Source: a bacterium (GTDB lineage Bacteria; Zhuqueibacterota; Zhuqueibacteria; Oceanimicrobiales; Oceanimicrobiaceae). From it: a DNA stretch of 25,094 nucleotides. The stretch lies in contig JBBIIG010000045.1 in NCBI GenBank assembly GCA_037446635.1, positions 7,206 through 32,299 on the forward strand. Direction: 5' to 3'. This document shows positions 2,217-24,019 of the stretch, one piece after another. Position numbers and translations under genes: made by a program. Position 1 is the stretch's first letter; the number at the start of each line of letters is the position of its first letter. Below the pieces are notes generated by a model. That model was not told the DNA's origin and did no database searches. It saw nothing but the letters and a program-made list of their open reading frames with translations.

Positions 2217-2530
2217 AACAACATCCGGAAAAAACAACTCCGATTCCCCGTGTGACACGCAACCCCAATCTGCTCCACCTCCAGCAGCAGCGTGTCGCCG
2301 TCGCAATCGTATTTGATCGACTTCACCAGTTGGTAATGTCCACTGGTTTCTCCCTTCTGCCACAGCTTTTGTCGCGATCGCGAAAAATAGCAGGCTTTGC
2401 GATCGCGAATCGTCAATTCCAAGCTTTCGCGATTCATGTACGCCAGCATCAGCACTTCTTTGGTAGCAGCGTCCTGCACCACCGCCGGCATGAGTCCGCG
2501 CTCATCGAATTGGAGCTCGTTGAGATTCAT
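2213..2530 (-). CDS. hisI: Phosphoribosyl-AMP cyclohydrolase (monofunctional, no HisE domain)
   Basis: [18 protein letters not shown] and DCDGD...[10 protein letters not shown] motifs; 105 aa; ATGA overlap with hisF. Confidence 0.95.
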
Positions 2531-3285
2531 TTTCGCACCGGAATGTTTTTGTTTGCGAGATAATTTTTGACTTCCGCAATTCTCAATTTTCGAAAATGGA
2601 AAATGGTTGCCGCCAACGCGGCGTCGGCTTGTCCTTTCAAAAATACTTCCTCGAAATGATGCAGGTCGCCGCCGCCGCCCGAAGCGATCACCGGAATTTT
2701 CACGGCAGTGGAAATTTGCCGTGTGATCTCAAGATCGAACCCTTGTGTTGTGCCATCGCAATCCATACTAGTGAGCAAGATTTCGCCGGCCCCCAATTCC
2801 TCGACTCGCTTCGCCCAGGTCAGCGCCTCGATTCCCGTGGCCTGACTGCCGCCATGAGTATACACTTCCCAGCGATTCGGAGAAGTTTGTTTGACATCAA
2901 TTGCTAGCACCACACATTGCGAACCGAAGGCCTCCGCAGCTTTTGTAATCAACGTCGGTTCCGCAACCGCGGCCGTGTTGAGCGAAATTTTATCGGCGCC
3001 GCGCGAAAGAATTTCGCGGATTTCAGACAAAGAGCGGAGACCGCCGCCAATGGTGAATGGGATGAACACGCTGCGCGACAATTTCTCCACTAGATCAAAC
3101 ATCAGCGACCGCTTTTCTTTCGAGGCGGTGATGTCGAGGAACACCAGCTCATCCGCGCGCTCCTCGACATAATATTTTGCTAGCGCAACCGGATCGCCGG
3201 CGTCGCGCAAATTCTCAAATTGCACGCCTTTCACCACGCGACCTTCCATCACATCTAAACAGGGGATGATGCGCCGCGCCAGCAT
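2527..3285 (-). CDS. hisF: Imidazole glycerol phosphate synthase cyclase subunit
   Basis: [43 protein letters not shown]; start overlaps the hisA stop. Confidence 0.97.
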
Positions 3286-3998
3286 CACAACACCTCTTCA
3301 GGCTGAATGCGGCCTTCGTAAAACGCGCGTCCGACGATCACACTGTCCACGCCAAATGGCGCTAATTTTTGCAGCGCATCCAAATCTGCTTTTGAAGAAA
3401 TTCCCCCTGAAGCGGTGACCCTCAGACCGGTCGCCACCGCCAACTCTTTTGTACTTTCAATTGCCGGGCCCTGCAACATGCCATCGCGGGCGATGTCCGT
3501 GTAAAGCACACGGTTCAAGCCGGCGGATTTGAATTGCCGCGCTAATTCCACCGCCGGGAGTTCAGTTTCCTGCTGCCACCCTTCAATCGCCACACGTCCG
3601 TCGCGCGCATCGACCGCCAGCGTCAGCCGCTCTGGCCGGTATGTTTTCAATGCCTCCAAAACAAGCTGCGGATTTTTGACCGCGGCGGTCCCGATCACAA
3701 TCCGCTGCACGCCGCGATTGAACCAAAACTCAATTTGCTCCAGCGTGCGAATGCCCCCACCCAACTGCACGGGAATTTGCACTGCGGCTAAAATCCTTTC
3801 GATCACTTCAACGTTTATTGAGCCAAGGCCCGCTGTAGCATCCAAATCGACGACGTGCAAAAGTACCGCGCCGGCGCTTTGAAATCGAAGAGCCACCACT
3901 TCGGGTTGCGCGGAGTAAATTGTCAATCGCGAAAACTCACCTTGCTGCAAGCGCACACACTTTCCATTTTTGATGTCAATCGCCGGAATCACCAACAT
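3285..3998 (-). CDS. hisA: ProFAR isomerase
   Basis: [43 protein letters not shown] at 3998 with GGAG upstream. Confidence 0.96.
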
Positions 3999-3999
3999 C

Positions 4000-4599
4000 T
4001 CACATCTCCGCAAAATTTTTCAAAATTTGCAATCCGAATTCCTGGCTTTTCTCCGGGTGAAACTGCACGCCGAAAACATTCTCTTTTTCCACGATTGCCG
4101 TGAATGAATGACCATAATCCGCGGTGGCTACGGCAACCTTCGAATCGCCCGGTTCGCAAAAATAGGAATGCACAAAGTACGCATGACGCGATATCGGCAG
4201 ATTTTTCAGTAATCGCGATTCGCGCTGAATCTGAATTTCATTCCAGCCAATTTGCGGCACCTTGAGACTCGCATCAAAACGCTTCACCTCCCCGACGATG
4301 ACATTCAATCCGGGAGTCGGCTGCCCCTCTTCGCTGCGGGTGAAAAAAAGCTGCATGCCCAAACAGATTCCTAAAATGGGAACACCCGCACGAATTCGTT
4401 CCAGTAACGCGGTTTTCAAATTCAGAGCGCGCAGATTTTTCATGGCGTAAAAAAATGCGCCTACGCCGGGCAGCACCAATTTCGGCGCGCAAGAAATTTC
4501 TTCTGGCGTGTTGATGCGCCGCGTCTCGATACGTAAATGTTCAAATGCGTTTTCGAGGCTGCGCAAATTGCCGACACCGTAGTCAACTATGGCGATCAT
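4000..4599 (-). CDS. hisH: Imidazole glycerol phosphate synthase glutamine amidotransferase subunit
   Basis: IVDYGVGNL, LPGVGAF, GICLGMQ, YFVHSY, QFHPEKS catalytic triad motifs. Confidence 0.97.
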   Translation of the reverse strand: MIAIVDYGVGNLRSLENAFEHLRIETRRINTPEEISCAPKLVLPGVGAFFYAMKNLRALNLKTALLERIRAGVPILGICLGMQLFFTRSEEGQPTPGLNVIVGEVKRFDASLKVPQIGWNEIQIQRESRLLKNLPISRHAYFVHSYFCEPGDSKVAVATADYGHSFTAIVEKENVFGVQFHPEKSQEFGLQILKNFAEM

Positions 4600-5183
4600 G
4601 CCAACACTCCTTTGGATGACGCCGTCCCTTTACGAAGCGGTGAGGGTTGCACCGCTTGTCGCAACGCTAGCGCCGTCGCTTTGAAAATGCTCTCGATCTG
4701 ATGATGCGTGTTTTCGCCGTACAAAAGCTGCACGTGCAAATTGATGAACGCGTGGTTGACGAACGCTTGCAAAAATTCTTTCACCAGCTCCGTGTCAAAT
4801 TCGCCAACCTTGCTCTTTGAGAAGGCCGCACTAAAAACCAGCGTTGGCCGTCCAGAAATATCCACCACTGCACGGGCCAGCGACTCGTCCATGGGCACAT
4901 ACGCGGAGCCGTAACGCACAATGGCGCGGTCCGCTGGCAGGCTTTGTTTGAACGCCTGTCCTAAAACGATGCCAACATCTTCCACTGTGTGATGAGCATC
5001 CACGTGTAAATCGCCGCTGCATTTGATTTCAAGATCCAATCCGCTGTGAAACGCTAGCAGCGTCATCATGTGATCAAAAAATCCGACGCCAGTTTTGATT
5101 TCGCTCTTTCCTTCGCCGTAAAGTTCGATTTTGAGAACAATATCGGTCTCATGGGTTTTGCGAGTGATGGTGGTTTTGGACAT
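4596..5183 (-). CDS. hisB: Imidazoleglycerol-phosphate dehydratase (monofunctional)
   Basis: RKTHETDI, GFFDHM, DAHHTVED, NTHHQIES; no N-terminal HAD phosphatase domain; start set at MSKTT. Confidence 0.96.
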   Translation of the reverse strand: MSKTTITRKTHETDIVLKIELYGEGKSEIKTGVGFFDHMMTLLAFHSGLDLEIKCSGDLHVDAHHTVEDVGIVLGQAFKQSLPADRAIVRYGSAYVPMDESLARAVVDISGRPTLVFSAAFSKSKVGEFDTELVKEFLQAFVNHAFINLHVQLLYGENTHHQIESIFKATALALRQAVQPSPLRKGTASSKGVLA

Positions 5184-5222
5184 GAACTTATTCCTTTCTA
5201 ACTTGATCGCGCAGAATAATAT

Positions 5223-5369
5223 TGTCATTCCTCACCCGACGAAAAGCGTCCGGTGAGGAATCTGGCGGAGCACCAAATCATTTTGTATCCTATCAACTAC
5301 GAGCGCACTCACCCGAAGCGACTCTCCGCCAGATTTCTCGACTCCGCTGCGCTTCGTCTCGAAATGACA
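5223..5369. repeat. TGTCATT...AATGACA palindromic element in the hisC-hisB spacer
   Basis: Terminal TGTCATT/AATGACA; internal perfect pair AATCTGGCGGAG (5259-5270) / CTCCGCCAGATT (5324-5335); sub-hairpin ATTCCTCACC...GGTGAGGAAT. Confidence 0.75.
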
Positions 5370-5381
5370 TTTTCAAAAAAG

Positions 5382-6467
5382 TTACTTCAAATCCAAAAGG
5401 GCTCGTTTTAAAGCCTGAACACACGCCTCATTCTCCGCGCGCGTCCCGACACTGATGCGCAGCTTCTTTTGCAGCCGCGGATGGTAACCGGAGATGTCGC
5501 GTATCAGCACGCCCTGCTCGCTCATCACTTCAAAAACGGCATCTGATGAAAACGGCGTTCCGATCATAAAAAAGTTCGCGGCCGATGGAAATACGCTGAC
5601 GCCGTCGATGGCTTCCAATTCCCGATAGAGCCACTCTTTCTCACGCTGTAATTGCCGGATACGTTGGGTGACCACCTCCGGATGCTCGAGCACTTTGCAG
5701 GCGACGGTCTCGCTGAGAATGTTGAGGTTATACGGCAGCTTCACTTTTCGAAACTCGGCGACCAAATTGGGATGCGTGATCAAATAGCCGACGCGCAGTC
5801 CAGCCAATCCCAGCGCTTTTGAAAACGTGCGTGTGATGATGAGATTCTCAAATTCGTTTTGCAGCGGCAGCGCACTCCTTTCGGCAAACTCAAAATAGGC
5901 TTCGTCAACAACAACCAGCCCCGCGGCCGCGCGCAAAATTTCAGCGAGACCTTCTATCGCCAGCAACGCGCCGGTGGGACTATTGGGCGAACACAACACG
6001 CACAATTCCGGCTGATTCACTTTCAGCGCTGATAAAATTCTCTCGACTGGAAATGACCAGTCGGCTTCAAATTCCAACGCCAGCAATTCCGCTTCAAAAA
6101 CGCGCGCGATTTGCTGATAAATGGGAAACGTTGGAACCACGGTCAACAACTTTTTGTGGGTGGATAGAGTTGCCGTGAAAATCATTTGCAGGATTTCATT
6201 CGAGCCGTTGCCGATCAGCAGTCGCTGCGGTTCAACATTCAAATGGGCCGCCAATTTTTCCTGCAAACGATTTCTTGAAAAATCCGGGTAACGATTCCAC
6301 GAAATTTTTTGCAGTTCATCGGCGATCGCCGTTTTCAGCCACTGCGGCAAATCCTCGGGATGCTCGTTTTGGTTGAGCTTGATTTTATATTCGCGCGATG
6401 GCAAATGATAGGGAGAAATCGCGCGAACCGCCAGCCGGATTGCGGTCAAACAATCATCTGCTTTCAT
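5382..6467 (-). CDS. hisC: Histidinol-phosphate aminotransferase
   Basis: KLNQNEHP, GNGSNE, SPNSPTG, VVDEAY, RTFSKALGLAGLRVGY (PLP lysine); start set at MKADD. Confidence 0.93.
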   Translation of the reverse strand: MKADDCLTAIRLAVRAISPYHLPSREYKIKLNQNEHPEDLPQWLKTAIADELQKISWNRYPDFSRNRLQEKLAAHLNVEPQRLLIGNGSNEILQMIFTATLSTHKKLLTVVPTFPIYQQIARVFEAELLALEFEADWSFPVERILSALKVNQPELCVLCSPNSPTGALLAIEGLAEILRAAAGLVVVDEAYFEFAERSALPLQNEFENLIITRTFSKALGLAGLRVGYLITHPNLVAEFRKVKLPYNLNILSETVACKVLEHPEVVTQRIRQLQREKEWLYRELEAIDGVSVFPSAANFFMIGTPFSSDAVFEVMSEQGVLIRDISGYHPRLQKKLRISVGTRAENEACVQALKRALLDLK

Positions 6468-6513
6468 AAACTTTGAAAAAAATGAATACGCGTTCTGTAA
6501 ACTTCGTGAATTA

Positions 6514-7782
6514 TCAAGACCGGCACTCGATTGAGAATTGGTGATTGTACAATCCTTCCAACTCCGCAAAACGGGCAATGTGCTTGGCGTCGCTGCGGAA
6601 GCGTTCTTTTGAATATTGCACCAGCGATGAAAATTTCATGAAGTCCCACACGCTCAGCGGCGAGGCGAAGCGCGCGCTAGCGGCGGTTGGTAAAACATGA
6701 TTCGACCCAGCGAAATAATCACCGATTGCCACGGGAGAAAATTCGCCCACGAAAATCGCGCCGGCGTTGCGCATCTGCGGCCATACTTGATCGAGATTCT
6801 CTGTCATAATCTGCACATGTTCCGGTGCTATTTGATTGACGACGCGTGCTGCTTCCGCGATGTCATTTACCAAAATAACCGCGCCGGCATTCGTTAAGGA
6901 TTTTTGCAATATTTCTTTGCGCGGAAGCCCGGGTAACAACTGTTCAATAATTTTGGCAACCGCGCTCGTCAGCTTCTTGGATGGCGTAATCAAAAGCGCT
7001 CGCGCATCGGGATCATGCTCGGCCTGCGCCAGCAAATCGCGCGCGATATATTGCGGATTGGCGCTGTCATCGGCCAACACCACGACTTCGGAAGGACCCG
7101 CCAGACTATCGATGCCCACGTCACCAAAAACTTGACGTTTCGCTTCGTTGACAAAAGCATTTCCGGGACCGACAATTTTATCAACCGGTGGAATGGACTT
7201 TGTGCCGTACGCTAACGCGGCGATCGCCTGCGCCCCGCCCACGGTGTAAATCTCGTTGATTCCCAGAAGTCTTGCAACCGCCAACACCAATTGATTGGCA
7301 CCACCTTCGCGCGTTGGCGGCGACACCAGCGCGATGCGCTCGACGCCGGCAATTTGCGCCGGCATCACGGTCATGATCACCGTCGAAGGATACGCCGCAC
7401 GTCCGCCTGGAACATATACGCCGACGTTTTGCATCGGAGTGAATTGTAAACCCCGGCGCGAACCATCCGGCAACGTTTCGAGCCATGACTTCGGCAGCTG
7501 ATTTTCATGGAATCTACGGACATTCTCGATGGCGCGTTCAAAGATCCGGCGAATCTCCGCATCTAATTTCTGCAAACTGTCATCGAGCAGAGGTTGCGGC
7601 ACTCGAAGCGACGGCAGTTTGACACCATCGAATTTCTCGGTGAGTTGTGTCAACGCGCGATCGCCATCGCGCCGCACGCGGGCGATGATGTCGGAAACGT
7701 GCTGCCGCAATTGCTGAGTGTCAGCAGCGGTCGCTTTTTGAATTTTAATAAACTCGTCCGGTGAAGAATAGATTTTCAGCAT
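6514..7782 (-). CDS. hisD: Histidinol dehydrogenase
   Basis: GVYVPGG, GGAQAIAALAYGT, KIVGPGN, AGPSE, QAEH, GDYFAGSNHVLPT; alternative TTG start at 7797. Confidence 0.96.
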   Translation of the reverse strand: MLKIYSSPDEFIKIQKATAADTQQLRQHVSDIIARVRRDGDRALTQLTEKFDGVKLPSLRVPQPLLDDSLQKLDAEIRRIFERAIENVRRFHENQLPKSWLETLPDGSRRGLQFTPMQNVGVYVPGGRAAYPSTVIMTVMPAQIAGVERIALVSPPTREGGANQLVLAVARLLGINEIYTVGGAQAIAALAYGTKSIPPVDKIVGPGNAFVNEAKRQVFGDVGIDSLAGPSEVVVLADDSANPQYIARDLLAQAEHDPDARALLITPSKKLTSAVAKIIEQLLPGLPRKEILQKSLTNAGAVILVNDIAEAARVVNQIAPEHVQIMTENLDQVWPQMRNAGAIFVGEFSPVAIGDYFAGSNHVLPTAASARFASPLSVWDFMKFSSLVQYSKERFRSDAKHIARFAELEGLYNHQFSIECRS

Positions 7783-7834
7783 ATCGGTAAAAGGCAATCC
7801 TGTAGGCGACGAGACTCGCCCCCTATTAGTCTGG

Positions 7835-8704
7835 TTAGTAAATCACTTTGTTCAGCGGGTACTCAATGATATCTTCTGCACCGGCTTTTTTCAACAGTGG
7901 CAGAAGTTTGCGCACCACTTTTTCATCGAGGATGGTTTCGAGCGCCACCCAGTCGTTGCCCACCAGCGGCGCGATGGTGGGGCGCTTCATCGCGGGTAAA
8001 ACTTTTTGCACGTTTTCGAGATCGGTTTTGCGGACGTTCAATTTCAAGCCGACCTTGCCGCTGGCGTGAATCGCGCCCTGCATGAGCATCGCAAGGCTCT
8101 GAATTTTCTCGCGCTTCCACTCGTCGCGAACACTCTCGAAGTTGGCAATCAGCCGCACAGTGGACTCTAAAACCGTATCCACGATGCGCAGCTTGTTGGC
8201 GCGCAGCGAGGCGCCGCTTTCGGTGATCTCCACGATGGCATCGACCAGCTCCGGCGTCTTCGCTTCCGTGGCGCCCCACGAAAATTCTACCTCAGCAGTA
8301 ACGCCGTGCTTCTCCAGGTATTTTTTGGTGATGTTCACCACCTCGGTGGCAATGCGCTTGCCATTTAAATCTTTCACCGTTTGAATTTGCGAATTTTCCG
8401 GCACCGCCACCACCCAGCGCACTGGCCGAAAACTTACTTTCGAGTAAATCAGCTCTGCAACCTCAACCACTTCGACGCCATTTTCAATAATCCAATCCTT
8501 GCCGGTGATGCCAACATCTAGCACACCATCAGCGACGTATTTAGCCATCTCTTGCGCGCGGATCAAAATCGCCTGCAGTTCCTCGTCGTCGCTGGCGGGA
8601 AAATAGGCGCGCTCGCGGATGTAAAAATTGAACCCGGCTTTGCTGAGCAGAATCAGCGTTGCCTCCTGCAAGCTGCCTTTTGGCAAACCAATTTTGAGCA
8701 TCAT
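7835..8704 (-). CDS. hisG: ATP phosphoribosyltransferase, long form
   Basis: [44 protein letters not shown] and a C-terminal regulatory domain; AGGAG 7 nt before ATG at 8704. The ORF-track extension to 8875 runs through a repeat element. Confidence 0.95.
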
Positions 8705-8767
8705 CACCTTTCTCCTGTCGCGAGTTTGGCAGTGTTGAGTGCCAAACTTCAGTTTGGCATATTTAAA

Positions 8768-8902
8768 TGGGGCTGTCCAAAAAGTCCATCTGTCACTCCC
8801 GCATGTTTTTAGCGGGAGTCTATAAGTTGCTGTTTTCATGGATGACCGCAAAAAGCATGCGGGCATGACATTCAACGAAAATCGACTTTTTGGACAGCCC
8901 CA
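8768..8902. repeat. MITE/REPIN-like palindromic element with perfect 19-bp terminal inverted repeats in the his 5' UTR
   Basis: TGGGGCTGTCCAAAAAGTC (8768-8786) / GACTTTTTGGACAGCCCCA (8884-8902); inner arms TGTCACTCCCGCATG...CATGCGGGCATGACA. Confidence 0.85.
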
Positions 8903-13906: not shown

Positions 13907-14012
13907 TAACAGTTGGTCGCGCGAATCGAGGTCAACCCAGCGAGTTACACGCGCGGGTCACTCACGATGCCGGCGCCGTTCACAGTAATTGAAGAAGACA
14001 TCTTTCGCTTAC

Positions 14013-14038
14013 GAAACCCGAAAACGCCTTTTTCGTCT
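14013..14038 (+). promoter_or_regulatory. Possible ECF-type promoter upstream of the sigma factor gene
   Basis: GAAAC-N16-CGTCT, the generic AAC/CGT ECF promoter pattern; single occurrence. Confidence 0.35.
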
Positions 14039-14050
14039 TTTGGTGTGTTT

Positions 14051-15343
14051 ATGGAATACCCAACATCAGGCCCGAGTCCGGCGCTAAGCAGTGAAGACGC
14101 ATCGCAATCTATCCGTAAGATGGTGGATGCCGTCTATCGCACGGAGTCGCGCCGCATCCTCGCCACCCTCATCCGGATGCTCGGCGACTTCGATCTCGCT
14201 GAAGACGCACTCCACGAAGCCTTCGCGGCCGCGGTAGAAAAATGGCCGGCGGAGGGCGCGCCGGCCAATCCTCGGGCGTGGCTGGTTTCCACCGGCCGCT
14301 TCAAAGCCATCGACGCCATGCGGCGGCGCGCCCGTTACGACGAAAAACTAACAGAGTTGGCTGAGCGGCTTGCCGACGACGCCGCAGACAGGGCAGAGTC
14401 GGAGGACGAGGGTCTCGAAGACGACCAACTGCGGCTCATCTTCACCTGCTGCCACCCGGCGCTGTCTTCGGAGGCGCGAATTGCGCTGACGCTGCGGGAG
14501 GTTTGCGGCCTCACCACCGAGGAGATCGCGCGCGCTTTCCTCACGACTCCCCCTACCCTCGCGCAACGCATTGTGCGCGCCAAAGCGAAAATCCGCGACG
14601 CGCGCATTCCGTATCAGGTGCCGTCGCCGGCGGAGTTGCCGGATCGGTTAGATACGGCGCTGCACGTGATCTACCTGGTGTTCAACGAGGGCTATTCGGC
14701 TTCCTCGGGTGAATCGCTCACCCGGCCCGATCTCTCGGGCGAGGCCATTCGCCTCGGGCGTCTGCTGCTCGAATTGCTGCCGCAGCCGGAGGTGATGGGA
14801 CTGCTGGCGCTGATGCTGCTGCACGAATCGCGGCGGCCTGCCCGCACTTCGCCGTCTGGTGATTTGATTTTGCTTGAAGATCAGGATCGCTCGCTTTGGA
14901 ATCGCGATCAAATTGCAGAGGGGTTGGCGCTGGTGGAACAGGCGATGTCCTCGCGGCAGTTTGGGTCTTACACTTTGCAAGCGGCGATTGCGGCGGTGCA
15001 CGCCGAAGCGCCCACGGCCGCCGCCACGGACTGGGCGCAGATCGTGGCGCTCTACGATTTGCTTTTGCAGGCGAGGCCATCGCCGGTGATCGAACTGAAT
15101 CGCGCGGTGGCGGTGGCCATGCGAGACGGTCTCGAGGTGGGACTGGCCCTCATCGACGCCATCCTGAGCCGCGGCGATTTGGCGGACTACCATCTGGCGC
15201 ACGCGGCGCGAGCGGATTTGTGCCGACGGCTGGGAAGAACCACAGAAGCCCGGAGTTCCTACGAACGCGCCCTCCGCCTCACCCAGCAGGAGCCGGAGCA
15301 GCGGTTTCTCCAACGCCGGCTGGATGAGTTGCGGGCGGCGTAG
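14051..15343 (+). CDS. ECF42-type RNA polymerase sigma factor with C-terminal TPR-like extension
   Basis: Region 2 (GDFDLAEDALHEAF...NPRAWL...KAIDAMRR), region 4 (DDQLRLIFTCCHPAL...LTTEEIARAFL...QRIVRAK), and an extension of about 200 aa (LEDQDRSLW, QAAIAAVHA, ELNRAVAV). It lies next to DGPF genes. The start is uncertain (GTG 14045 or ATG 14051). Confidence 0.92.
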   Translation: MEYPTSGPSPALSSEDASQSIRKMVDAVYRTESRRILATLIRMLGDFDLAEDALHEAFAAAVEKWPAEGAPANPRAWLVSTGRFKAIDAMRRRARYDEKLTELAERLADDAADRAESEDEGLEDDQLRLIFTCCHPALSSEARIALTLREVCGLTTEEIARAFLTTPPTLAQRIVRAKAKIRDARIPYQVPSPAELPDRLDTALHVIYLVFNEGYSASSGESLTRPDLSGEAIRLGRLLLELLPQPEVMGLLALMLLHESRRPARTSPSGDLILLEDQDRSLWNRDQIAEGLALVEQAMSSRQFGSYTLQAAIAAVHAEAPTAAATDWAQIVALYDLLLQARPSPVIELNRAVAVAMRDGLEVGLALIDAILSRGDLADYHLAHAARADLCRRLGRTTEARSSYERALRLTQQEPEQRFLQRRLDELRAA

Positions 15344-15559: not shown

Positions 15560-15591
15560 TGTCGATTTTGGGCTGCGTCAAACGACTATTG
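15560..15591 (+). promoter_or_regulatory. ECF42-type promoter 1
   Basis: TGTCGATTTT-N13-CGACTATTG, 37 nt before the first YCII gene; same motif and spacing as 16033-16064. Confidence 0.8.
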
Positions 15592-15628: not shown

Positions 15629-15982
15629 ATGAAATACATGCTGCTCATTTACCTTGACGAACAAGCGCTGGACGAGATCGAGCGGGAGCAGTGCTACGTG
15701 GAGTCCACGCAGCTTGCCCGGGAACTCCGCTCCCGCGGCCAGTACCTGGGCGCGAACCCCCTGCACCCAATCTCGACGGCAACCAGCGTGCGCGTGCGCA
15801 ACGGCAGGCGGCTGGTGACCGACGGCCCGTTTGCGGAAACCCACGAGCAGCTCGGCGGCTATTTTCTCATCGACGCCGAGAATCTCGACGAGGCCATCGG
15901 CATCGCCGAACGCATCCCCATGGCGCGCAAGGGCACAGTAGAAATCCGGCCGGTGGTGGAGATTCCGGGGTTGCCGGGTTAA
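15629..15982 (+). CDS. YCII-related (DGPF) protein
   Basis: MKYMLLIY...TDGPFAETHEQLGGYFLI...VEIRPV; GGAGG RBS. Confidence 0.92.
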   Translation: MKYMLLIYLDEQALDEIEREQCYVESTQLARELRSRGQYLGANPLHPISTATSVRVRNGRRLVTDGPFAETHEQLGGYFLIDAENLDEAIGIAERIPMARKGTVEIRPVVEIPGLPG

Positions 15983-16032
15983 TTTCGCGCTTAGTTGGAA
16001 AAACCAGAAAAATTCCGGGCGAAAAGATAACG

Positions 16033-16064
16033 TGTCGATTTTATCCCCCTTCGAGCGACTATTG
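16033..16064 (+). promoter_or_regulatory. ECF42-type promoter 2
   Basis: TGTCGATTTT-N13-CGACTATTG, 39 nt before the second YCII gene. Confidence 0.8.
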
Positions 16065-16103
16065 GAAGGAAGCAAAACAATTACATCAGAAAGGACAAAA
16101 ATT

Positions 16104-16520
16104 ATGCGCTTCATGGTCATGGTCAAAGCAACGAAAAATTCAGAGGCAGGCATTCTCCCCGACGAGAAACTGCTTTCCGATATGATGAAATACAATGAAG
16201 AACTGTCGAAAGCCGGAATCATGCTTGCTGGCGAAGGCCTTCAGCCAAGCTCGAAAGGAGCACGGGTCAAGTTTTCTGGCGATAAGCGAATGGTGACCGA
16301 TGGGCCCTTCCCTGAGACCAAAGAGCTGGTTGCTGGCTTCTGGTTGTGGCAATGTAAAACGATGGAAGAAGCCATTGAGTGGGTGAAGCGCTGTCCGAAC
16401 CCGATGCCCGGAGAGGAGGCCGTCATCGAGATTCGTCCGCTATTTGAGGCGGAGGATTTCGGCGCAGCGCTCACGCCGGAGCTGCGGGAAAAAGAGGAGC
16501 GGCTGCGCGTGAAGAAGTGA
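16104..16520 (+). CDS. YCII-related (DGPF) protein
   Basis: MRFMVMVKA...GEGLQPSSKG...TDGPFPETKELVAGFW...IEIRPLFE; AAGGA RBS before ATG 16104. Confidence 0.92.
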   Translation: MRFMVMVKATKNSEAGILPDEKLLSDMMKYNEELSKAGIMLAGEGLQPSSKGARVKFSGDKRMVTDGPFPETKELVAGFWLWQCKTMEEAIEWVKRCPNPMPGEEAVIEIRPLFEAEDFGAALTPELREKEERLRVKK

Positions 16521-16607
16521 ATGGTGGTTCGGTAGTTCGTTCAACTTGAGGGCGCGCATGGAAATTTGTTGGTTTTAGCGCACTAACTTCAACCAGAGGA
16601 GCCCAAG

Positions 16608-16982
16608 ATGGCCAGTGCAACTATCAAATTCGACGGCGGCGTGAACATCGCTGTCAAAATCCCCAAAAACAAATATGAAAAAACCGTCGCCTTCTATCGC
16701 GACATCTTAAACCTAAAAGTAGTGGAAAGGCCGGTCGAGTCCCCTTCGATTTCACGCACGCACGAAGTGAAGTTTGGAACCCATTCGCTTTGGCTGGATT
16801 GCGTGGATCATTACACCCACTCGGAAACCTGGCTGGAATTAAGAACCACCGATGTTGATGCAGCCACCCGCTACTTGAAATCCAAAGGAATCGAGACCTG
16901 CGATGAATTGGAGAAAATACCGGCTAACATGCACTGGATTATGGATCCGGCCGGAACGGTATTCCTCTTATGCGCGCAATAA
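16608..16982 (+). CDS. VOC / glyoxalase-bleomycin resistance family protein
   Basis: NIAVKIP...VAFYRDILNL...WLELRTTDVDAA...WIMDPAG; GAGGAG RBS. Confidence 0.75.
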   Translation: MASATIKFDGGVNIAVKIPKNKYEKTVAFYRDILNLKVVERPVESPSISRTHEVKFGTHSLWLDCVDHYTHSETWLELRTTDVDAATRYLKSKGIETCDELEKIPANMHWIMDPAGTVFLLCAQ

Positions 16983-17016
16983 ATTGAAAAAATTATGGTC
17001 TAAGCACAGGAGAGAC

Positions 17017-18462
17017 ATGTTAAAAAGAGAAGCCCAAATGGATGTTACTTTAGAGAATCACACGCGCCTGGCCACGGCGCGTTCGCTTTGGCAGGAACTA
17101 AAAGATGCCATTCGCGGAACAGAAGCTGACTACACCCAAATCGGCATCGGCAAGGCGGTGTTCCTGCTGGCAGTTCCAATGATTTTGGAATTGATCATGG
17201 AGTCCACCTTTGCGGTGGTGGATATCTACTTCGTTGGCACACTGGGCGCTTCGGCGGTGGCAACCGTCGGTTTGACGGAGACCTATTTGTTTCTGCTCTA
17301 TTCCATCGGCATTGGATTGTCGATGGCCGTTACCGCCATTGTTGCGAGGCGAATCGGAGAAAAGAACAAACAACAGGCTGGCCTCGCAGCCATTCAATCT
17401 ATTTTCATTGCCTTGCTCGTTTCCGTGCCGTTTGCTCTCACCGGCATCTTCTTTGCCAAAGACTTGCTGGGGCTGATGGGCGCCGATGCCTGGACGCTCG
17501 AGCACGGCTACCGTTACATGCAATGGATGCTGGGCGGCAACGCGGTGATCATGTTGCTGTTTGTGATCAATGCCATTTTCCGCGGCGCCGGCGATCCCGC
17601 CATTGCCATGCGTGTGCTGTGGATCGCCAACGGCTTCAACATCATTTTAGATCCAGTGCTTATTTTCGGACTGGGACCCTTTCCCGAATTAGGAATCGAA
17701 GGCGCCGCCATTGCCACCACTATCGGTAGAGGCATCGGCGTGCTTGCGCAACTGTGGCTGCTTTTCAAAGGTGGCAAACATATCCGGGTACTTCCTTCTC
17801 AGATTCATCTTCACTGGCCGACCATTGCCAATATCGTTCGGACTTCATGGGGTGGCATTGGGCAAATGATTATTGGCATGACTTCCTGGATTTTCATCAT
17901 GCGCATCCTTGCTGAATTTGGAAGCCAGACCGTGGCCGGCGCCACCATCGCACTGCGCATCATGATGTTCACGCTCATGCCGGCCTGGGGCATGTCGAAC
18001 GCAGTGGCGACGCTCGTCGGACAAAATCTCGGCGCCCAAAAACCGGAACGCGCTGAACGCGCAGTATGGGTGACCGGCTTCTGGAATATGCTGTTTTTGA
18101 TCGGGGTGTCGATTTTCTATTTTCTTTTCAGTGAATCACTGGTTAGCATTTTCACCGATGATGGCGGCGTCATCGCCGTCGGCGCAAAATGGCTGCGCAT
18201 CGTTTCCTATTCCTATTTTGTCTATGCCTGGTGGATGGTGGCGGTGCAGGCCTTCAATGGCGCCGGCGACACCGCCACCCCGACCAAAATCAACCTGGTC
18301 TTTTTCTGGTTGTTTCAAATTCCGCTTTCATACCTGATGGCAAAGACCCTCGGCATGGCGCATACAGGCGTGTTTTGGGCAATTTTCGTTTCAGAAACTT
18401 CGATAGGCCTGTTCACCTTGTGGCTCTTCAACCGCGGCGGGTGGAAGAAGGTGAAGGTGTGA
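17017..18462 (+). CDS. MATE family efflux transporter
   Basis: About 12 hydrophobic segments; AVVDIYFVGTLG, FRGAGD, NIILDPVLIFG...LGIEGAAIAT, VGQNLGA, FNGAGDT; AGGAG before ATG 17017. Confidence 0.92.
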   Translation: MLKREAQMDVTLENHTRLATARSLWQELKDAIRGTEADYTQIGIGKAVFLLAVPMILELIMESTFAVVDIYFVGTLGASAVATVGLTETYLFLLYSIGIGLSMAVTAIVARRIGEKNKQQAGLAAIQSIFIALLVSVPFALTGIFFAKDLLGLMGADAWTLEHGYRYMQWMLGGNAVIMLLFVINAIFRGAGDPAIAMRVLWIANGFNIILDPVLIFGLGPFPELGIEGAAIATTIGRGIGVLAQLWLLFKGGKHIRVLPSQIHLHWPTIANIVRTSWGGIGQMIIGMTSWIFIMRILAEFGSQTVAGATIALRIMMFTLMPAWGMSNAVATLVGQNLGAQKPERAERAVWVTGFWNMLFLIGVSIFYFLFSESLVSIFTDDGGVIAVGAKWLRIVSYSYFVYAWWMVAVQAFNGAGDTATPTKINLVFFWLFQIPLSYLMAKTLGMAHTGVFWAIFVSETSIGLFTLWLFNRGGWKKVKV

Positions 18463-18510
18463 AAACGGAAGTAAAAATAATGTCTAACCAATTCGAAAAA
18501 GGAGATGACC

Positions 18511-18984
18511 ATGCCAAAAATCACCCCATTCTTGTGGTTCGATAACCAGGCCGAGGAGGCCGCGAACTTTTACACCTCTATTTTCAAGAACTCAAAGGTT
18601 GTGAACGTGGCGCGCTACGGAGACGCAGGGCCGGGACCAAAGGGGTCAGTGATGACCGTTGTCTTCCAGATCGAGGAGCAGGAATTCATTGCGCTGAACG
18701 GCGGGCCGCAATTCAAATTCACCGAAGCCGTTTCGTTCGTCGTCAATTGCAAAACTCAGGAAGAGGTGGATTATTTTTGGGAGAAGCTCTCTGCCGGCGG
18801 GGAAATCCAAATGTGCGGCTGGCTCAAAGATAAATTTGGCTTGTCGTGGCAAATCGTCCCCACGGCTTTGGGCGAGCTGATGAGCGACCCGGATCCGATA
18901 AAATCACAGCGAGTCATGCAAGCCATGCTGCACATGCAGAAGCTCAACATCGAGCAATTGCAGCAGGCGTATGCGCAAAAATAA
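18511..18984 (+). CDS. VOC family protein (3-dmu-9_3-mt / PhnB-like)
   Basis: [19 protein letters not shown]...[16 protein letters not shown]...[16 protein letters not shown]. Confidence 0.9.
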
Positions 18985-18996
18985 GGAGAAACACTC

Positions 18997-19446
18997 ATGG
19001 ACACATTACGTTTTTCAATCGTTATCAACGCCCCCAAAGAAAGAGTTTGGAACACCATGCTCGACGACGCTACCTACCGGCAGTGGACGGAAGCCTTTAC
19101 GCCCGGTTCCCACTACGTCGGCGACTGGAGCAAAGGCAGCAAAATTCTTTTCCTTGGACCGGACCCGGCCGGCAAGCTGTCCGGCATAGTGAGCCGAATC
19201 AAAGAAAACCGGCGCTACGAGTACATCTCCATCGAACACCTTGGCGTTGTGCAAGATGGCAAAGAAGACACAACCAGCGACGCGGTGAAGGCGTGGGCCG
19301 GCGCGCACGAAAATTACACCTTCAAGGAGAGGGGCGGCAAAACCGAAGTGCTAGTGGAGATGGATTCGGCGGACGAGTACAAGGAGATGTTCCAAGAAAA
19401 GTGGCCGCAAGCGCTGCAAAAACTCAAAGAGTTGGCGGAGGAGTAG
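18997..19446 (+). CDS. SRPBCC / AHSA1-like ligand-binding protein
   Basis: INAPKERVW...YRQWT...ENYTF...WPQALQKLKELAE helix-grip pattern. Confidence 0.85.
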   Translation: MDTLRFSIVINAPKERVWNTMLDDATYRQWTEAFTPGSHYVGDWSKGSKILFLGPDPAGKLSGIVSRIKENRRYEYISIEHLGVVQDGKEDTTSDAVKAWAGAHENYTFKERGGKTEVLVEMDSADEYKEMFQEKWPQALQKLKELAEE

Positions 19447-19481
19447 AGCGAATTCACTATTAGAAATCGGCGATCGAGTTA

Positions 19482-19937
19482 ATGTTGAAGAATATAGTAA
19501 ACTTGAAACTTGCCGAGCAAATCACGGGATTTTTGCTGCGGGTGGTGTCGGGGCTGCTTTTTCTGCAGGCTGGCGGCATGAAACTCTTCGGCTGGTTCGG
19601 AGGCATGCCCGGCGGCGGCACCGCGCCGCTGCTCTCCCAAATTGGCATTGGCGGAGTGCTGGAGGTAGTGGGCGGTATCGCCATGATGCTCGGTCTGTTT
19701 ATCCGGCCGGTGGCCTTCATTTTATCCGGTGAGATGGCCGTGGCGTACTGGCAATTTCATGCGCCCAGTGGCGCGTGGCCGATCCAAAATCAGGGCGTGC
19801 CGGCGGTGCTGTTTTGTTTCATCTTTTTGTTTTTCGCGGCGTACGGCGCCGGTGATTGGAGCCTCGATGCGCTTTGGCGGCGCCGTGCTCTAAATCGTTC
19901 CCACAAGAATTCCCCTACAATTGCGGAGAAAAGATGA
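19482..19937 (+). CDS. DoxX family membrane protein
   Basis: LLRVVSGLLF..GGMKLFG, LEVVGG..LGLFIRPVAFILSGEMAVAY, GAGDWSLD. Confidence 0.9.
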   Translation: MLKNIVNLKLAEQITGFLLRVVSGLLFLQAGGMKLFGWFGGMPGGGTAPLLSQIGIGGVLEVVGGIAMMLGLFIRPVAFILSGEMAVAYWQFHAPSGAWPIQNQGVPAVLFCFIFLFFAAYGAGDWSLDALWRRRALNRSHKNSPTIAEKR

Positions 19938-20314
19938 AGTATCTTTGTTTGGCCTACGAGGAGGAAAGCATCCTCAACGCGATGTCCCAAAGTGAGTGGA
20001 GCGCGCTAAGAGCGGAAACTCTGGCCTATGTGGAAGAATTACAGAAAAACGGCTATCTGATTGCCGCGGAGCCCCTGCAGAGCGTTCGTACCGCCGCCAC
20101 GGTGCGGGTTCGCAACAACAAGGTCGCTGTCACCGATGGCCCTTTCGCCGAGACCAAGGAGACGCTCGGTGGTTTCTTCCTGATCAACGCGCGCGATCTA
20201 AACGAGGCGATTCAAGTGGCCTCGCGGTGGCCGTCGGCGCGTTTCGGGAGTATCGAGGTTCGTCCCATCGCGGAGGAGCTTCGAGAAAGCGGCCGTTATT
20301 CGCCAGCGCCATGA
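19934..20314 (+). CDS. YCII-related (DGPF) protein
   Basis: MKYLCLAY...TDGPFAETKETLGGFFLI...IEVRPI; ATGA overlap with DoxX. Confidence 0.92.
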   Translation: MKYLCLAYEEESILNAMSQSEWSALRAETLAYVEELQKNGYLIAAEPLQSVRTAATVRVRNNKVAVTDGPFAETKETLGGFFLINARDLNEAIQVASRWPSARFGSIEVRPIAEELRESGRYSPAP

Positions 20315-20367
20315 GGCGTTGGCCACGGCATATCACTGAATCTTAAACAAATTAAAGGAGGAACACG

Positions 20368-20796
20368 ATGGCCACGATGAATCCTTATTTGAACTTTAAG
20401 GGCAACACCGAAGAAGCCTTCAATTTTTACAAATCCGTTTTTGGCGGAGAATTCATGACGCTGCAGCGTTTCAAAGATACGCCGGCGGCGGACAAAATCC
20501 CGGCAAACGAAAAAGCAAAAATTATGCACGTCGCCTTACCCATTGGAAAAGGAAACGTACTCATGGGAACCGACGCACTGGAATCAATGGGGCAGAAATT
20601 GACAATCGGCAACAATTTTTATATCTCCATTAACGCGGAAAGTAAAGAAGAAGCGGAGAAACTTTTTAACGGACTCTCGGCCGGCGGGAAAATCGAAATG
20701 CCGCTTCAGGATGCTTTCTGGGGCGCCTACTTTGGGATGTTCACCGACAAGTTCGGCATTCAGTGGATGGTCAATTACGATTATAATCAAAAATGA
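20368..20796 (+). CDS. VOC family protein (PhnB-like)
   Basis: NPYLNFKGNTEEAFNFYKSVFGGE...IMHVAL...FWGAYFGMFTDKFGIQWMVN; AAGGAGG RBS. Confidence 0.9.
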   Translation: MATMNPYLNFKGNTEEAFNFYKSVFGGEFMTLQRFKDTPAADKIPANEKAKIMHVALPIGKGNVLMGTDALESMGQKLTIGNNFYISINAESKEEAEKLFNGLSAGGKIEMPLQDAFWGAYFGMFTDKFGIQWMVNYDYNQK

Positions 20797-20892: not shown

Positions 20893-22071
20893 ATGAGCAA
20901 GGTTCGAGTTTTGGTTGGCACGCGCAAGGGCGCGTTTATTCTCACCTCCGACGGCAAGCGCCAGAAGTGGGAAGTGAGCGGGCCGCATTTTGCCGGCTGG
21001 GAAATTTATCATATCAAAGGCTCGTCGGTTGATCCAAATCGGATTTATGCCTCACAGACCAGCGGCTGGTTCGGGCAGATCATCCAACGCTCCGATGACG
21101 GCGGCAAAACCTGGCACCAACCCGGCACGCCTCCCGGCGAGCCCACCACCACCCCAGAGGGCTGGCCCAAAGGCGAAAGCAACAAGTTCGTTTACGATAC
21201 CGCCGCAGCGCCGCTGACCACGCATCAGTGGTACGACGGCACCCAGCATCCGTGGGAATTCAAGCGTGTGTGGCACCTCGAGCCGTCGCTGAGCGACCCA
21301 GACACCGTTTACGCCGGCGTGGAAGACGCCGCCCTGTTCCGCACCACCGACGGCGGCAAATCCTGGCATGAGCTCGCGGGACTGCGCGGCCACGGCACCG
21401 GATCACAATGGGCGCCGGGCGCCGGCGGCATGTGCCTGCATTCCATCCTTTTGGATCCCAAAAATCCCAAACGAATTTATATTGCCATCTCCGCGGCGGG
21501 CGCGTTTCGTAGCGATGATGGCGGCAAATCATGGAAACCGATCAACAAAGGGCTGCAGTCGCAATACATTCCCGATCCGGACGCCGAGATCGGTCACTGC
21601 GTTCATCACATCGCGATGAATCCGTTGCGGCCGGACGTACTGTTCATGCAGAAGCACTGGGATGTCATGCGCAGCAACGACGCCGGCGACTCGTGGCATG
21701 AGGTCAGCGGCAATCTGCCCACCGACTTCGGCTTTGTGATTGACGTCCACGCCCACGAGCCGGAGACCATCTACGTCGTGCCCATCAAAAGCGACTCCGA
21801 GCACTACCCACCGGACGGCAAATTGCGCGTCTATCGCAGCCGCACCGGCGGCAACGAATGGGAAGCGCTCACGAACGGTTTGCCGCAAAAGGACTGTTAC
21901 GTCAATGTTTTGCGCGACGCGATGGCGGTGGATTCGCTAGATAAGTGCGGCATCTACTTTGGCACCACCGGCGGCCAGGTGTATTGTTCGCCCGACGCTG
22001 GCGATAGTTGGGCGCCAATCGTCCGTGATCTGCCGGCGGTGCTGTCGGTGGAAGTTCAAACGCTGCGGTAA
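20893..22071 (+). CDS. Cytoplasmic BNR/Asp-box beta-propeller protein of unknown function
   Basis: About six Asp-boxes ([54 protein letters not shown]); no signal peptide; AAGGAG RBS. Confidence 0.85.
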
Positions 22072-22079
22072 CAAGCCAC

Positions 22080-22108
22080 GTAGGGAACGCATAGTATGCG
22101 TTCCCTAC
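22080..22108. repeat. Perfect GTAG-type REP palindrome
   Basis: GTAGGGAACGCATA-G-TATGCGTTCCCTAC (14-bp perfect arms); second copy at 24389-24416. Confidence 0.9.
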
Positions 22109-22166
22109 CAATTCAACCTTCGCGGTGTTTGGTATCAGTTTTTGACTTTCTACTTTGGAATTTCTT

Positions 22167-22469
22167 ATGAGTGCCATTAGAATAACGCTTCCGTTTCATC
22201 TGCGAAACCTGGCGCAGGTCGGCGCCGAGGTGACACTGGAGATCGAGGGTCCGGTCACGATCCGTGCGGTGTTGGACGCGCTCGAGGCTCGGTATCCGAT
22301 GCTGGCCGGTACCATCCGCGACCACGTCACCCAGCAGCGCCGACCGTTCCTGCGATTTTTTGCGTGTGAGGAGGATTGGTCGCACGAGTCGCCAGATGCG
22401 CCGCTGCCGGAGGCAGTTGCATCCGGGCGAGAGCCACTGTTCATTGTGGGAGCGATTGCGGGCGGGTAG
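22167..22469 (+). CDS. MoaD/ThiS family ubiquitin-like protein with C-terminal Gly-Gly
   Basis: 100 aa; beta-grasp pattern [11 protein letters not shown]...[16 protein letters not shown]...RRPFLRFF...[12 protein letters not shown]. Confidence 0.88.
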
Positions 22470-22555: not shown

Positions 22556-24019
22556 GTGACTCTTAAACCCAACTTCCACATGACCCCGGAAGATTTTCGC
22601 CGCCACGGTCATGCCGTGGTAGATTGGATCGCAGATTACTATCAAAACATCGAATCGTTTCCGGTCTTATCGCAAGTGCAGCCGGGACAGATACGCGCCG
22701 CGCTTCCTGCCGATCCCCCCGTACGCGGCGAAGCTTTTGAAAACATCCTTGCCGATGTTGACAAACTGATTATGCGGGGAATCACTCACTGGCAGTCACC
22801 GAACTTCTTCGCCTATTTTCCGGCCAATGCCTCCGGCCCCTCCATTCTCGGCGAACTGCTCTCCGCCGGCCTGGGTGTGCAGGGGATGCTGTGGGCGACC
22901 AGCCCGTCCTGCACCGAACTCGAAACGCACGTGCTGGACTGGCTCGTGGATATGCTCGGCTTGCCGGGCAAGTTTAAATCCAACAGCACCGGTGGGGGCG
23001 TAATTCAGGATACGGCCTCCAGCGCCACGCTCTGTGCTCTGCTCGCCGCGCGCGAGCGCGCCACCAATTATCGCAGCAACGAACAGGGCTGCCTGTCTGC
23101 TCAGGCAGGCGATGGCAAGCTTGTCGCTTATGCCTCCAACCAGGCGCATTCGTCCGTCGAGAAAGCCGTGAAGATTGCCGGGCTGGGGCGCGAGAATCTC
23201 CGCCTGATCGACGTGGATGATCGCTTTGCCCTTCGCCCGGACGTGCTGGAGAGACAGATTAAACTCGATCGCAAAAATGGCCGGGTTCCGTGCTTCGTGT
23301 GTGCCACGGTGGGAACGACGTCCTCCAACGCTATCGATCCCGTTGCGGAGATTGGGCGTATCTGTCGCGAGCAGGGCCTCTGGCTGCACGTCGATGCGGC
23401 CATGTCCGGCACCGCGGCGCTCTGCCCGGAATATCGCTTCATCCACGATGGCGTGGAGCTGGCCGACAGCTACGCCTTTAATCCCCACAAGTGGATGTTC
23501 ACAAATTTTGATTGCGACTGCTTCTATGTGGCGGACCGCGAGGCTTTGATCAAGACGCTGAGTGTGCTGCCGGAATACCTGCGCAATCCGGCCACGGAGT
23601 CCGGCGCTGTCATCGACTACCGCGACTGGCACGTCCAACTTGGCCGGCGCTTCCGGTCTCTCAAGCTCTGGTTCGTTATTCGCCATTACGGCATCGAAGG
23701 CTTGCGTTACCACATCAAACGCCACGTAGAACTGGCGCAAGAATTGGCCAAATGGATTGAGGCGTCGGAGCGCTTCGAGTTGACGGCGCCAGCGCCCTTG
23801 AACCTAATTTGCTTTCGACATATCGGAGGCGAATCCATCAACCAACGCTTAATGGCCCGACTCAATCAGAGCGGCCGCTTATATTTGACCCACACCACCC
23901 TCAACGGCCAATTCACCCTGCGCTTATGTGTAGGACAGACCCAAACTGAGGAACGTCACGTGGTTGAGGCCTGGCGATTGATTCAGGAAACTGCCAAGGC
24001 ATTCGAGATGGAAACTTAA
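22556..24019 (+). CDS. Group II PLP-dependent decarboxylase (aromatic-L-amino-acid/DOPA decarboxylase-like)
   Basis: THWQSPNFFAYFP, SPSCTELE, AHSSVEKA, WLHVDAA, FNPHKW (PLP lysine), LGRRFRSLKLWFV; AAGGAGG before GTG. Confidence 0.93.
   Translation: MTLKPNFHMTPEDFRRHGHAVVDWIADYYQNIESFPVLSQVQPGQIRAALPADPPVRGEAFENILADVDKLIMRGITHWQSPNFFAYFPANASGPSILGELLSAGLGVQGMLWATSPSCTELETHVLDWLVDMLGLPGKFKSNSTGGGVIQDTASSATLCALLAARERATNYRSNEQGCLSAQAGDGKLVAYASNQAHSSVEKAVKIAGLGRENLRLIDVDDRFALRPDVLERQIKLDRKNGRVPCFVCATVGTTSSNAIDPVAEIGRICREQGLWLHVDAAMSGTAALCPEYRFIHDGVELADSYAFNPHKWMFTNFDCDCFYVADREALIKTLSVLPEYLRNPATESGAVIDYRDWHVQLGRRFRSLKLWFVIRHYGIEGLRYHIKRHVELAQELAKWIEASERFELTAPAPLNLICFRHIGGESINQRLMARLNQSGRLYLTHTTLNGQFTLRLCVGQTQTEERHVVEAWRLIQETAKAFEMET
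23091..23110. repeat. GCCTGYCTGC-type palindrome inside the decarboxylase coding sequence
   Basis: GCCTGTCTGCTCAGGCAGGC, 18/20 identical to intergenic GCCTGCCTGCGCAGGCAGGC (2064-2083); both are followed by GATG. Confidence 0.75.

Follow-up and report, generated by a model that had tools for sequence, protein, structure and literature searches.

A sialidase-annotated beta-propeller and a ubiquitin-like Gly-Gly protein as a likely enzyme and sulfur-carrier pair

Described carrier systems and the gene pair

To our knowledge, a named acceptor enzyme has been assigned to every bacterial sulfur carrier described so far. The carriers of the CysO-CysM-Mec system with MoeZ and of CysO-BexX (3DWG, 4N6E) share their fold and Gly-Gly tail with the small protein treated here, and the partners of CysO are a PLP enzyme or a ThiG-type barrel. 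A second parallel is found in MoaD-MoaE and the fused MoaX, where carrier and partner form a gene pair that is sometimes joined through GG-S, as is the propeller pair described below. The SAMP1/Urm1 modifiers come closest in fold to the present carrier, for which conjugation is hypothetical, and we know of no fixed propeller partner in these systems. According to the available part of PMC3227635, the E1 of CysO systems can serve more than one carrier in trans, a single MoeZ supplying sulfur to MoaD as well as to CysO; the genome studied here likewise encodes a JAB protease.

The window, i.e. the whole 25,094-nucleotide stretch of DNA that was analysed, holds a carrier gene of this kind on the same strand as a propeller gene, starting 95 bp past the propeller stop:

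20893..22071, plus strand: propeller ORF, 392 aa; cytoplasmic seven-bladed Asp-box beta-propeller of the 3B7F family
22167..22469, plus strand: carrier ORF, 100 aa; beta-grasp ubiquitin-like protein of SAMP1/CysO-like fold, C-terminus AIAGG
22365..22367, plus strand: carrier Cys67 (in RFFAC), clade-specific; present in 118/119 homologues among the matches listed
22461..22466, plus strand: C-terminal Gly-Gly of the carrier

A sequence-only reading of this DNA had described the first product as an Asp-box propeller lacking a signal peptide and the second as a 100-aa beta-grasp protein, and both descriptions hold. The propeller contains six Asp-boxes and is matched by Sortilin-Vps10 and BNR in Pfam, and no stretch hydrophobic enough for a signal peptide or a membrane segment is seen in its Kyte-Doolittle profile (highest 11-residue mean 1.04 in the first 40 aa; highest 19-mer 0.83). 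The AlphaFold2 model of the carrier (pLDDT 90.4) retrieved SAMP1 as best Foldseek match (E=1.9e-4, TM 0.73), followed by CysO (4N6E, 3DWG), MoaD and Urm1. By sequence, SAMP1 is reached at E around 1 only, and the carrier has no match in Pfam (ThiS, PF02597, included) or NCBIfam; PF02597 does recognise the carriers in the fusion clades. A search of plasmids with the carrier alone gave no match. The terminal Gly-Gly, whose conservation the earlier reading had proposed to check, is invariant in 62/62 aligned rows and in 119/119 homologues among the matches listed. As ORFs of 80-120 aa ending in GG amount to 34/6432 in this genome, this is more than chance. The position of Cys67 is not Cys in carriers of divergent clades.

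The pair departs from the CysO systems in its partner, an Asp-box propeller whose predicted site combines His with Cys or Asp, and the genome has its own CysO, CysM and JAB elsewhere, apart from the pair. It is also unlike MoaD-MoaE: the carrier is paired with a protein other than MoaE and escapes the Pfam ThiS model, and contig C9 holds a moaD-moaE pair of its own. The literature searched, with subscription papers and bioRxiv supplements outside its scope, contained no description of a propeller-carrier pair, and the text and three supplements of PMC1779556 mention no propeller, BNR or sialidase. The pair is real, widespread and, as far as the literature searched goes, undescribed.

Pairing across genomes, fusions and an E1 in trans

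A set of close loci was compiled from the best 80 of at least 596 confirmed stretches (600 candidates). These loci have 77-86% identity and span 11 phyla, 49/80 belonging to Acidobacteriota. In 74 of these best 80, the propeller gene is followed on its own strand by a carrier gene. The six remaining loci comprise one that ends at the propeller, one with 1.9 kb downstream and four with about 6 kb. The carriers of 68 loci end at the canonical GG, five have a tail after it and one is ambiguous. For a less biased sample, a profile search was run on two phyla, represented by 301 and 101 genomes, and found the propeller in 20 and 15 of them, respectively. At 19/20 and 15/15 of these loci (34/35 in the two other phyla), a GG carrier is encoded on the strand of the propeller gene at a distance of no more than 1.5 kb. 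The propellers concerned have identities of 25-83%, and depending on the clade the carrier gene is located upstream or downstream. The co-occurrence that the sequence-only reading had suggested measuring is thus borne out in both samples, and we consider it very probable that propeller and carrier are functional partners. Neighbour clustering revealed no third gene conserved with the pair, and no locus was found on viral contigs. A complex prediction, with both proteins given as alignments, scored 0.00; its controls did not fold, so that the score carries no weight either way. A glutamine-synthetase-family gene lies beside the propeller at four loci of two clades (L022, L125, L128, L131).

In a quick tree, from which the rows L111 (a duplicate), L018, L004 and L006 were dropped, three propeller clades have no carrier in their flanks: L011-L019, L121/L022/L023, and L021/L029, two Streptomyces loci. 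The first comprises nine loci of the window's own phylum with flanks of up to 1.5 kb. In five genomes of this clade, a Pfam ThiS search found only housekeeping carriers in three and an extra lone CysO-like gene in two, but since the ThiS model misses the window carrier, the search is a weak one. Six of the L011-L019 loci adjoin a ferredoxin-type gene, which we take to resemble a succinate dehydrogenase Fe-S subunit, and four adjoin glyoxalase-like genes. The carrier-less clades count against an obligate pair. They retain every invariant residue of the propeller, as would be expected if it were a small-molecule metalloenzyme able to work alone, with the beta-grasp protein as an accessory or structural subunit. 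Glyoxalase-fold neighbours, which recur in several clades, one of them carrier-less, point the same way. A structural subunit, however, needs neither an invariant terminal GG nor a GG kept inside fusions, and we consider this alternative to be of low probability.

Such fusions exist. A representative search uncovered the first, P0322, with an N-terminal carrier and the propeller in one chain; among 17 matches of a follow-up search ten were fusions, and a cluster look-up added one more. All 11 carrier-propeller fusions have the GG, followed by Ser or Ala, and the four placed in the quick tree fall into two separate clades with support of 93-100 each. According to the available part of PMC4326299, the MoaD-MoaE fusion MoaX has to be cut after Gly82 and before Ser83 to work. 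JAB is encoded in 5/5 genomes with tailed carriers, as counted in these five only.

Within the window, Pfam analysis of 29 proteins gave no ThiF, MoaE, JAB, rhodanese or cysteine synthase, in agreement with the earlier reading, and the sole row for ThiG, in the same 29 proteins, was a below-cut-off match on HisA. Around the close loci (the best 80 of at least 596; up to 6 kb), an E1 lies near 1/80 and JAB near 0/80, and the known acceptors MoaE, ThiG and CysM are found beside the carrier gene at 0/80 each. The genome as a whole (97% complete), on the other hand, encodes one full ThiF-family protein, on contig C4. This E1 is a CysO-MoeB-rhodanese fusion with nucleotide loop, two CxxC pairs and rhodanese Cys, and its gene sits downstream of CysM and JAB genes. 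The claim that no E1 is nearby thus stands for the locus but not for the genome, where a full E1, JAB and CysM share another contig. ThiS-ThiG is also encoded elsewhere in this genome. The arrangement on contig C4 (genome G000, about 30369-33215) consists of CysM, JAB and the three-domain fusion with an internal VAGG, and ThiS and ThiF matches in one open frame recur in relatives.

An E1 is present in 41/41 chosen propeller genomes. In the window's phylum it occurs in 59/151 genomes, that is, in 19/20 with a propeller versus 40/131 others, and in the sole propeller genome without it the propeller gene is truncated to its first 74 codons. MoaE is distributed similarly: it was found in 40/41 chosen propeller genomes, in 18/20 propeller genomes versus 26/131 others of the window's phylum, and in 20/20 versus 214/281 in one phylum sample. 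Both co-occurrences follow families, so that the genomes are not independent counts.

These MoaE counts are what one would expect if the propeller held a metal or a cofactor, e.g. the molybdenum cofactor, to which the carrier donates a sulfido ligand. At locus L026 (494-5080, Chondrinema litorale) the pair sits with genes for cysteine desulfurase, SufU, MoaE and XdhC, which would fit as well. Yet MoaE is near 0/80 close loci (best 80 of at least 596) and 1/46 divergent loci, all inspected genomes with MoaE encode a MoaD of their own next to it, and genome G103 (91% complete) has an intact pair and an E1 with no MoaE match. Sulfide delivery is therefore regarded as quite improbable. A role of the carrier as a spare MoaD for Moco synthesis was rejected.

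The propeller family and its predicted metal site

The propeller has one strong sequence match in the PDB, 3B7F (phmmer, E=7.8e-72; by family profile, E=2.1e-125). The AlphaFold2 model, calculated from a 72-row alignment, is all-beta (pLDDT 92.4, pTM 0.92), and 3B7F is likewise its best Foldseek match (TM 0.84), with GH74 enzymes next. At 50% identity the family comprises 1981 representatives (E up to 1e-30), and matches in the ESM Atlas were same-family clusters only, with automatic names. 3B7F corresponds to Reut_B4987 (YP_299179.1). The available part of PMC2716378 describes it as a seven-bladed propeller from structural genomics with the family 'Not known', and mentions no link to a carrier. 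Like the window protein, 3B7F has equivalents of H183, H238, Q253, H255 and R341; unlike it, it has Ile in place of Lys12 and Asp as the residue at 236. The window clade has a private insert at about residues 76-122. In P0265 (704 aa) and P0411, a family propeller is fused behind a domain that its motifs suggest to be Ser/Thr-kinase-like.

The earlier reading had drawn attention to three motifs, GMCLH (179-183), GHCVHH (234-239) and QKHW (253-256). The residues concerned, together with two basic ones, are located as follows:

20926..20928, plus strand: Lys12, basic and invariant, at a B-C turn; predicted to contact an anion
21433..21435, plus strand: Cys181 of GMCLH, not conserved family-wide
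21439..21441, plus strand: His183, at the start of an inner strand; predicted metal ligand; 69/69
21598..21606, plus strand: Cys236-Val-His238, predicted metal ligands; position 236 Cys/Asp, His238 69/69
21649..21657, plus strand: Gln253-x-His255, at a strand B-C turn; both 69/69; His255 a predicted metal ligand
21913..21915, plus strand: Arg341, basic and invariant, ahead of an inner strand; predicted to contact an anion

Residues were counted in 69 full-length diverse propellers, after two rows, one duplicate and one partial, had been dropped. K12, H183, H238, Q253, H255, F281 and R341 are present in 69/69, and W173 and S200 in 68/69 each. Position 236 is Cys in 39/69 and Asp in 30/69, with no other residue. 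C181 occurs in 13/69 diverse rows and in 71/80 close relatives (best 80 of at least 596), and H235 (25/69) and H239 (10/69) are variable. A partly overlapping set of 50 proteins gave H183 in 49, C236 in 42, H238 in 47, H255 in 47 and R341 in 50, with K or R at the Lys12 position in 50/50; H238, H255 or C/D236 is missing from a few of these proteins, so that rare members deviate. In the secondary structure of the model, the invariant residues all lie at inner-strand starts or B-C turns.

It becomes clear from these counts that GMCLH and GHCVHH, read before as similar motifs, are both present but not equivalent, C181 being variable and 236 strictly Cys or Asp. Of the proposed CxH conservation, the histidines H183 and H238 were recovered in all 69 rows, the cysteines not, and twin CxH catalytic motifs were rejected. 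QKHW, assigned by the earlier reading to a position ahead of a blade, is actually the end of strand B in the blade begun by GHCVHH.

A Cys/Asp exchange among fixed histidines is typical of metal ligands, not of thioester nucleophiles. The switch at 236 and the invariant histidines therefore fit a metal site rather than a thioester cysteine, with three or four invariant ligand-type residues (H183, H238, H255 and C/D236; 69 rows) at hand. That the four predicted ligands cluster is suggested by blade geometry, secondary structure placing them on the same face, and a closed metal site is a prediction. We consider it probable that the propeller holds a metal site. In PAL and carotenoid oxygenases, histidines from neighbouring blades hold one metal on the axis, and in zinc thiol-activating transferases the metal activates a sulfur nucleophile. 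The likeness of the propeller to these His-ligated propeller metalloenzymes and zinc transferases is one of analogy, not membership, and none of them is among the Foldseek matches listed.

Since 5/69 propellers have no Cys at any of 181, 201, 236 and 256, and no catalytic Cys is invariant, a thioester ligase of the E2/E3 type was rejected. From the earlier proposal of a metal- or thiol-dependent enzyme, the metal half fits the invariant residues, whereas a thiol ligase or thioester role lacks a universal Cys. The same deficit weighs on protein tagging, in which the carrier would be conjugated like SAMP1/Urm1 and the propeller would act as a metal-dependent remover or reader of the tag. This idea draws on the best fold match of the carrier, SAMP1, with Urm1 close behind, on the identity of 58-85% among carriers across phyla, which suggests constrained surfaces, and on the kinase-like fusion P0265, which hints at signalling. 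However, no E1 or JAB is kept near the loci, and E2/E3 are not among the recurrent neighbour clusters, so that we regard tagging as unlikely.

The database names suggest an ordinary glycosidase or sialidase that merely adjoins a spare MoaD, and GH74 xyloglucanases are the next neighbours after 3B7F in sequence and fold. GH74 enzymes have two tandem seven-bladed propellers (targets of 685-776 aa), in contrast to the single propeller of the 392-aa window protein. Their catalytic residue, the Asp of RTD, lies on the face that carries the invariant residues of our family. It aligns with Ser200 or His255, the blade position of His255 matching that of the RTD Asp in the N-terminal blade of a GH74 enzyme. 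No carboxylate outside the Asp-boxes is invariant except Cys/Asp 236 (69 rows); other acidic columns conserved to at least 70% either belong to Asp-boxes or turns or fall short of invariance. GH33 sialidases carry a RIP motif and an arginine triad; in the propeller family the RIP motif is absent and a single Arg is invariant (69- and 50-row sets). Sialidases also have six blades, as tabulated in the available part of PMC2716378, against seven in the window propeller. Together with the pairing and the fusions with a carrier, these features make a glycosidase very improbable, and the earlier suspicion that the sialidase or glycosidase label has no catalytic basis proved well founded.

Proposed mechanism and genomic setting

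Taken together, propeller and carrier genes form a conserved unit, whose propeller is likely a single-metal enzyme and whose GG protein is likely the dedicated sulfur carrier of that enzyme. The propeller would then be an undescribed enzyme, one that likely takes sulfur from a carrier loaded by an E1 that is encoded elsewhere. In a first step, the only E1 of the genome, the CysO-MoeB-rhodanese fusion, would adenylate and thiocarboxylate the last glycine of the carrier; tailed or propeller-fused carriers would first be trimmed by the JAB protease. In a second step, His183, Cys/Asp236, His238 and His255, together with Gln253, are predicted to coordinate a divalent metal where the propeller channel opens, while Lys12 and Arg341 may hold an anion. 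In the third and most tentative step, the thiocarboxylate sulfur, activated by the metal, would pass to a small electrophilic substrate, after which the carrier could be recharged. The idea of an electrophilic substrate derives from neighbour genes in a quarter of the close loci (best 80 of at least 596).

Pairing, fusions, residue pattern, carrier fold and an E1 in trans speak for a metalloenzyme that accepts sulfur from a thiocarboxylated carrier charged in trans. The carrier-less clades, the four close loci with no carrier in about 6 kb, the few members deviating at H238, H255 or C/D236, the lack of a third shared gene and a MoaE co-occurrence about as good as that of the E1 speak against it. 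We put forward the metalloenzyme acceptor tentatively, its chances falling somewhat short of even, and hold sulfur transfer from the carrier to be possible to a similar degree. A bolder proposal, that the sialidase-labelled propeller of thousands of genomes is a metalloenzyme using a protein thiocarboxylate as recyclable nucleophile against electrophiles, or else a ubiquitin-like deconjugase of new fold, seems rather unlikely. If sulfur transfer to the propeller is true, the acceptor fold would be new, as would the reaction, be it sulfur insertion or tagging; if the recyclable nucleophile is true, a protein carrier does the job of the small thiol in glutathione-type systems. The propeller family is large, includes a solved but unassigned structure (3B7F) and bears a sialidase annotation although the catalytic residues are missing, and its invariant set of three His plus Cys/Asp and the fusions provide handles for mutational and structural tests.

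At the present locus, where glyoxalase-fold, YciI, DoxX and MATE genes are neighbours, the third step would belong to a stress response under ECF42. The pair forms the end of a same-strand YciI/VOC run, with the following features upstream:

13913..15343, plus strand: ECF42-type sigma factor (Pfam sigma2, sigma4, DUF6596, TPR); local context, outside the core pair
15560..15586, plus strand: ECF42-type promoter-like motif before the first YciI gene
15629..20796, plus strand: same-strand run of three YciI, three VOC/glyoxalase-fold, MATE, SRPBCC and DoxX genes (Pfam)
16033..16059, plus strand: ECF42-type promoter-like motif ahead of the second YciI gene and at the head of the run on this strand whose last genes are the pair

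The ORF at 15629 was assigned by tblastn co-hits and the other genes of the run by Pfam. The sigma factor has the ECF42 architecture given in the available part of PMC8103513, and the promoter motif was compared with the S. meliloti RpoE10 promoters in that of PMC6180224. A scan for the motif yielded 3 matches versus 0.75 expected, 3 being reached by 5/100 shuffles, and the third match lies inside the MATE gene. In a set of 73, the motif occurs in sense orientation in 23 versus in antisense in 14. An ECF42 gene lies near 8/80 close loci (best 80 of at least 596, up to 6 kb) and 1/46 divergent loci; YciI is near 14 and a VOC/glyoxalase-fold gene near 20 of the same best 80. The stress context is thus a recurrent minority feature of the family, not a defining one. 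ECF42 control, which the sequence-only reading had proposed for the pair, is plausible at this locus, given the sigma gene and the promoter-like motif upstream of the run, but the counts of 8/80 and 1/46 led us to reject it as a family property. Scans for sigma-70 promoters and terminators were uninformative for the pair.

Directly downstream of the pair (window 22556-24019), Pfam identifies a group II PLP-dependent decarboxylase. As it is near 1/80 related loci (best 80 of at least 596), it was rejected as a partner. A gene labelled from its sequence as an HxlR-like regulator is near 16/80 close loci (L031-L110; best 80 of at least 596). Farther upstream in the window, an M1 aminopeptidase (leukotriene A4 hydrolase-like; Pfam) is split over two frames (27-596 and 449-1888), with the N-terminal domain in the first ORF and the catalytic and C-terminal domains in the second, which reflects a frameshift or an assembly error. 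It is followed on the minus strand (2527-8875) by an ordinary histidine biosynthesis operon (Pfam).
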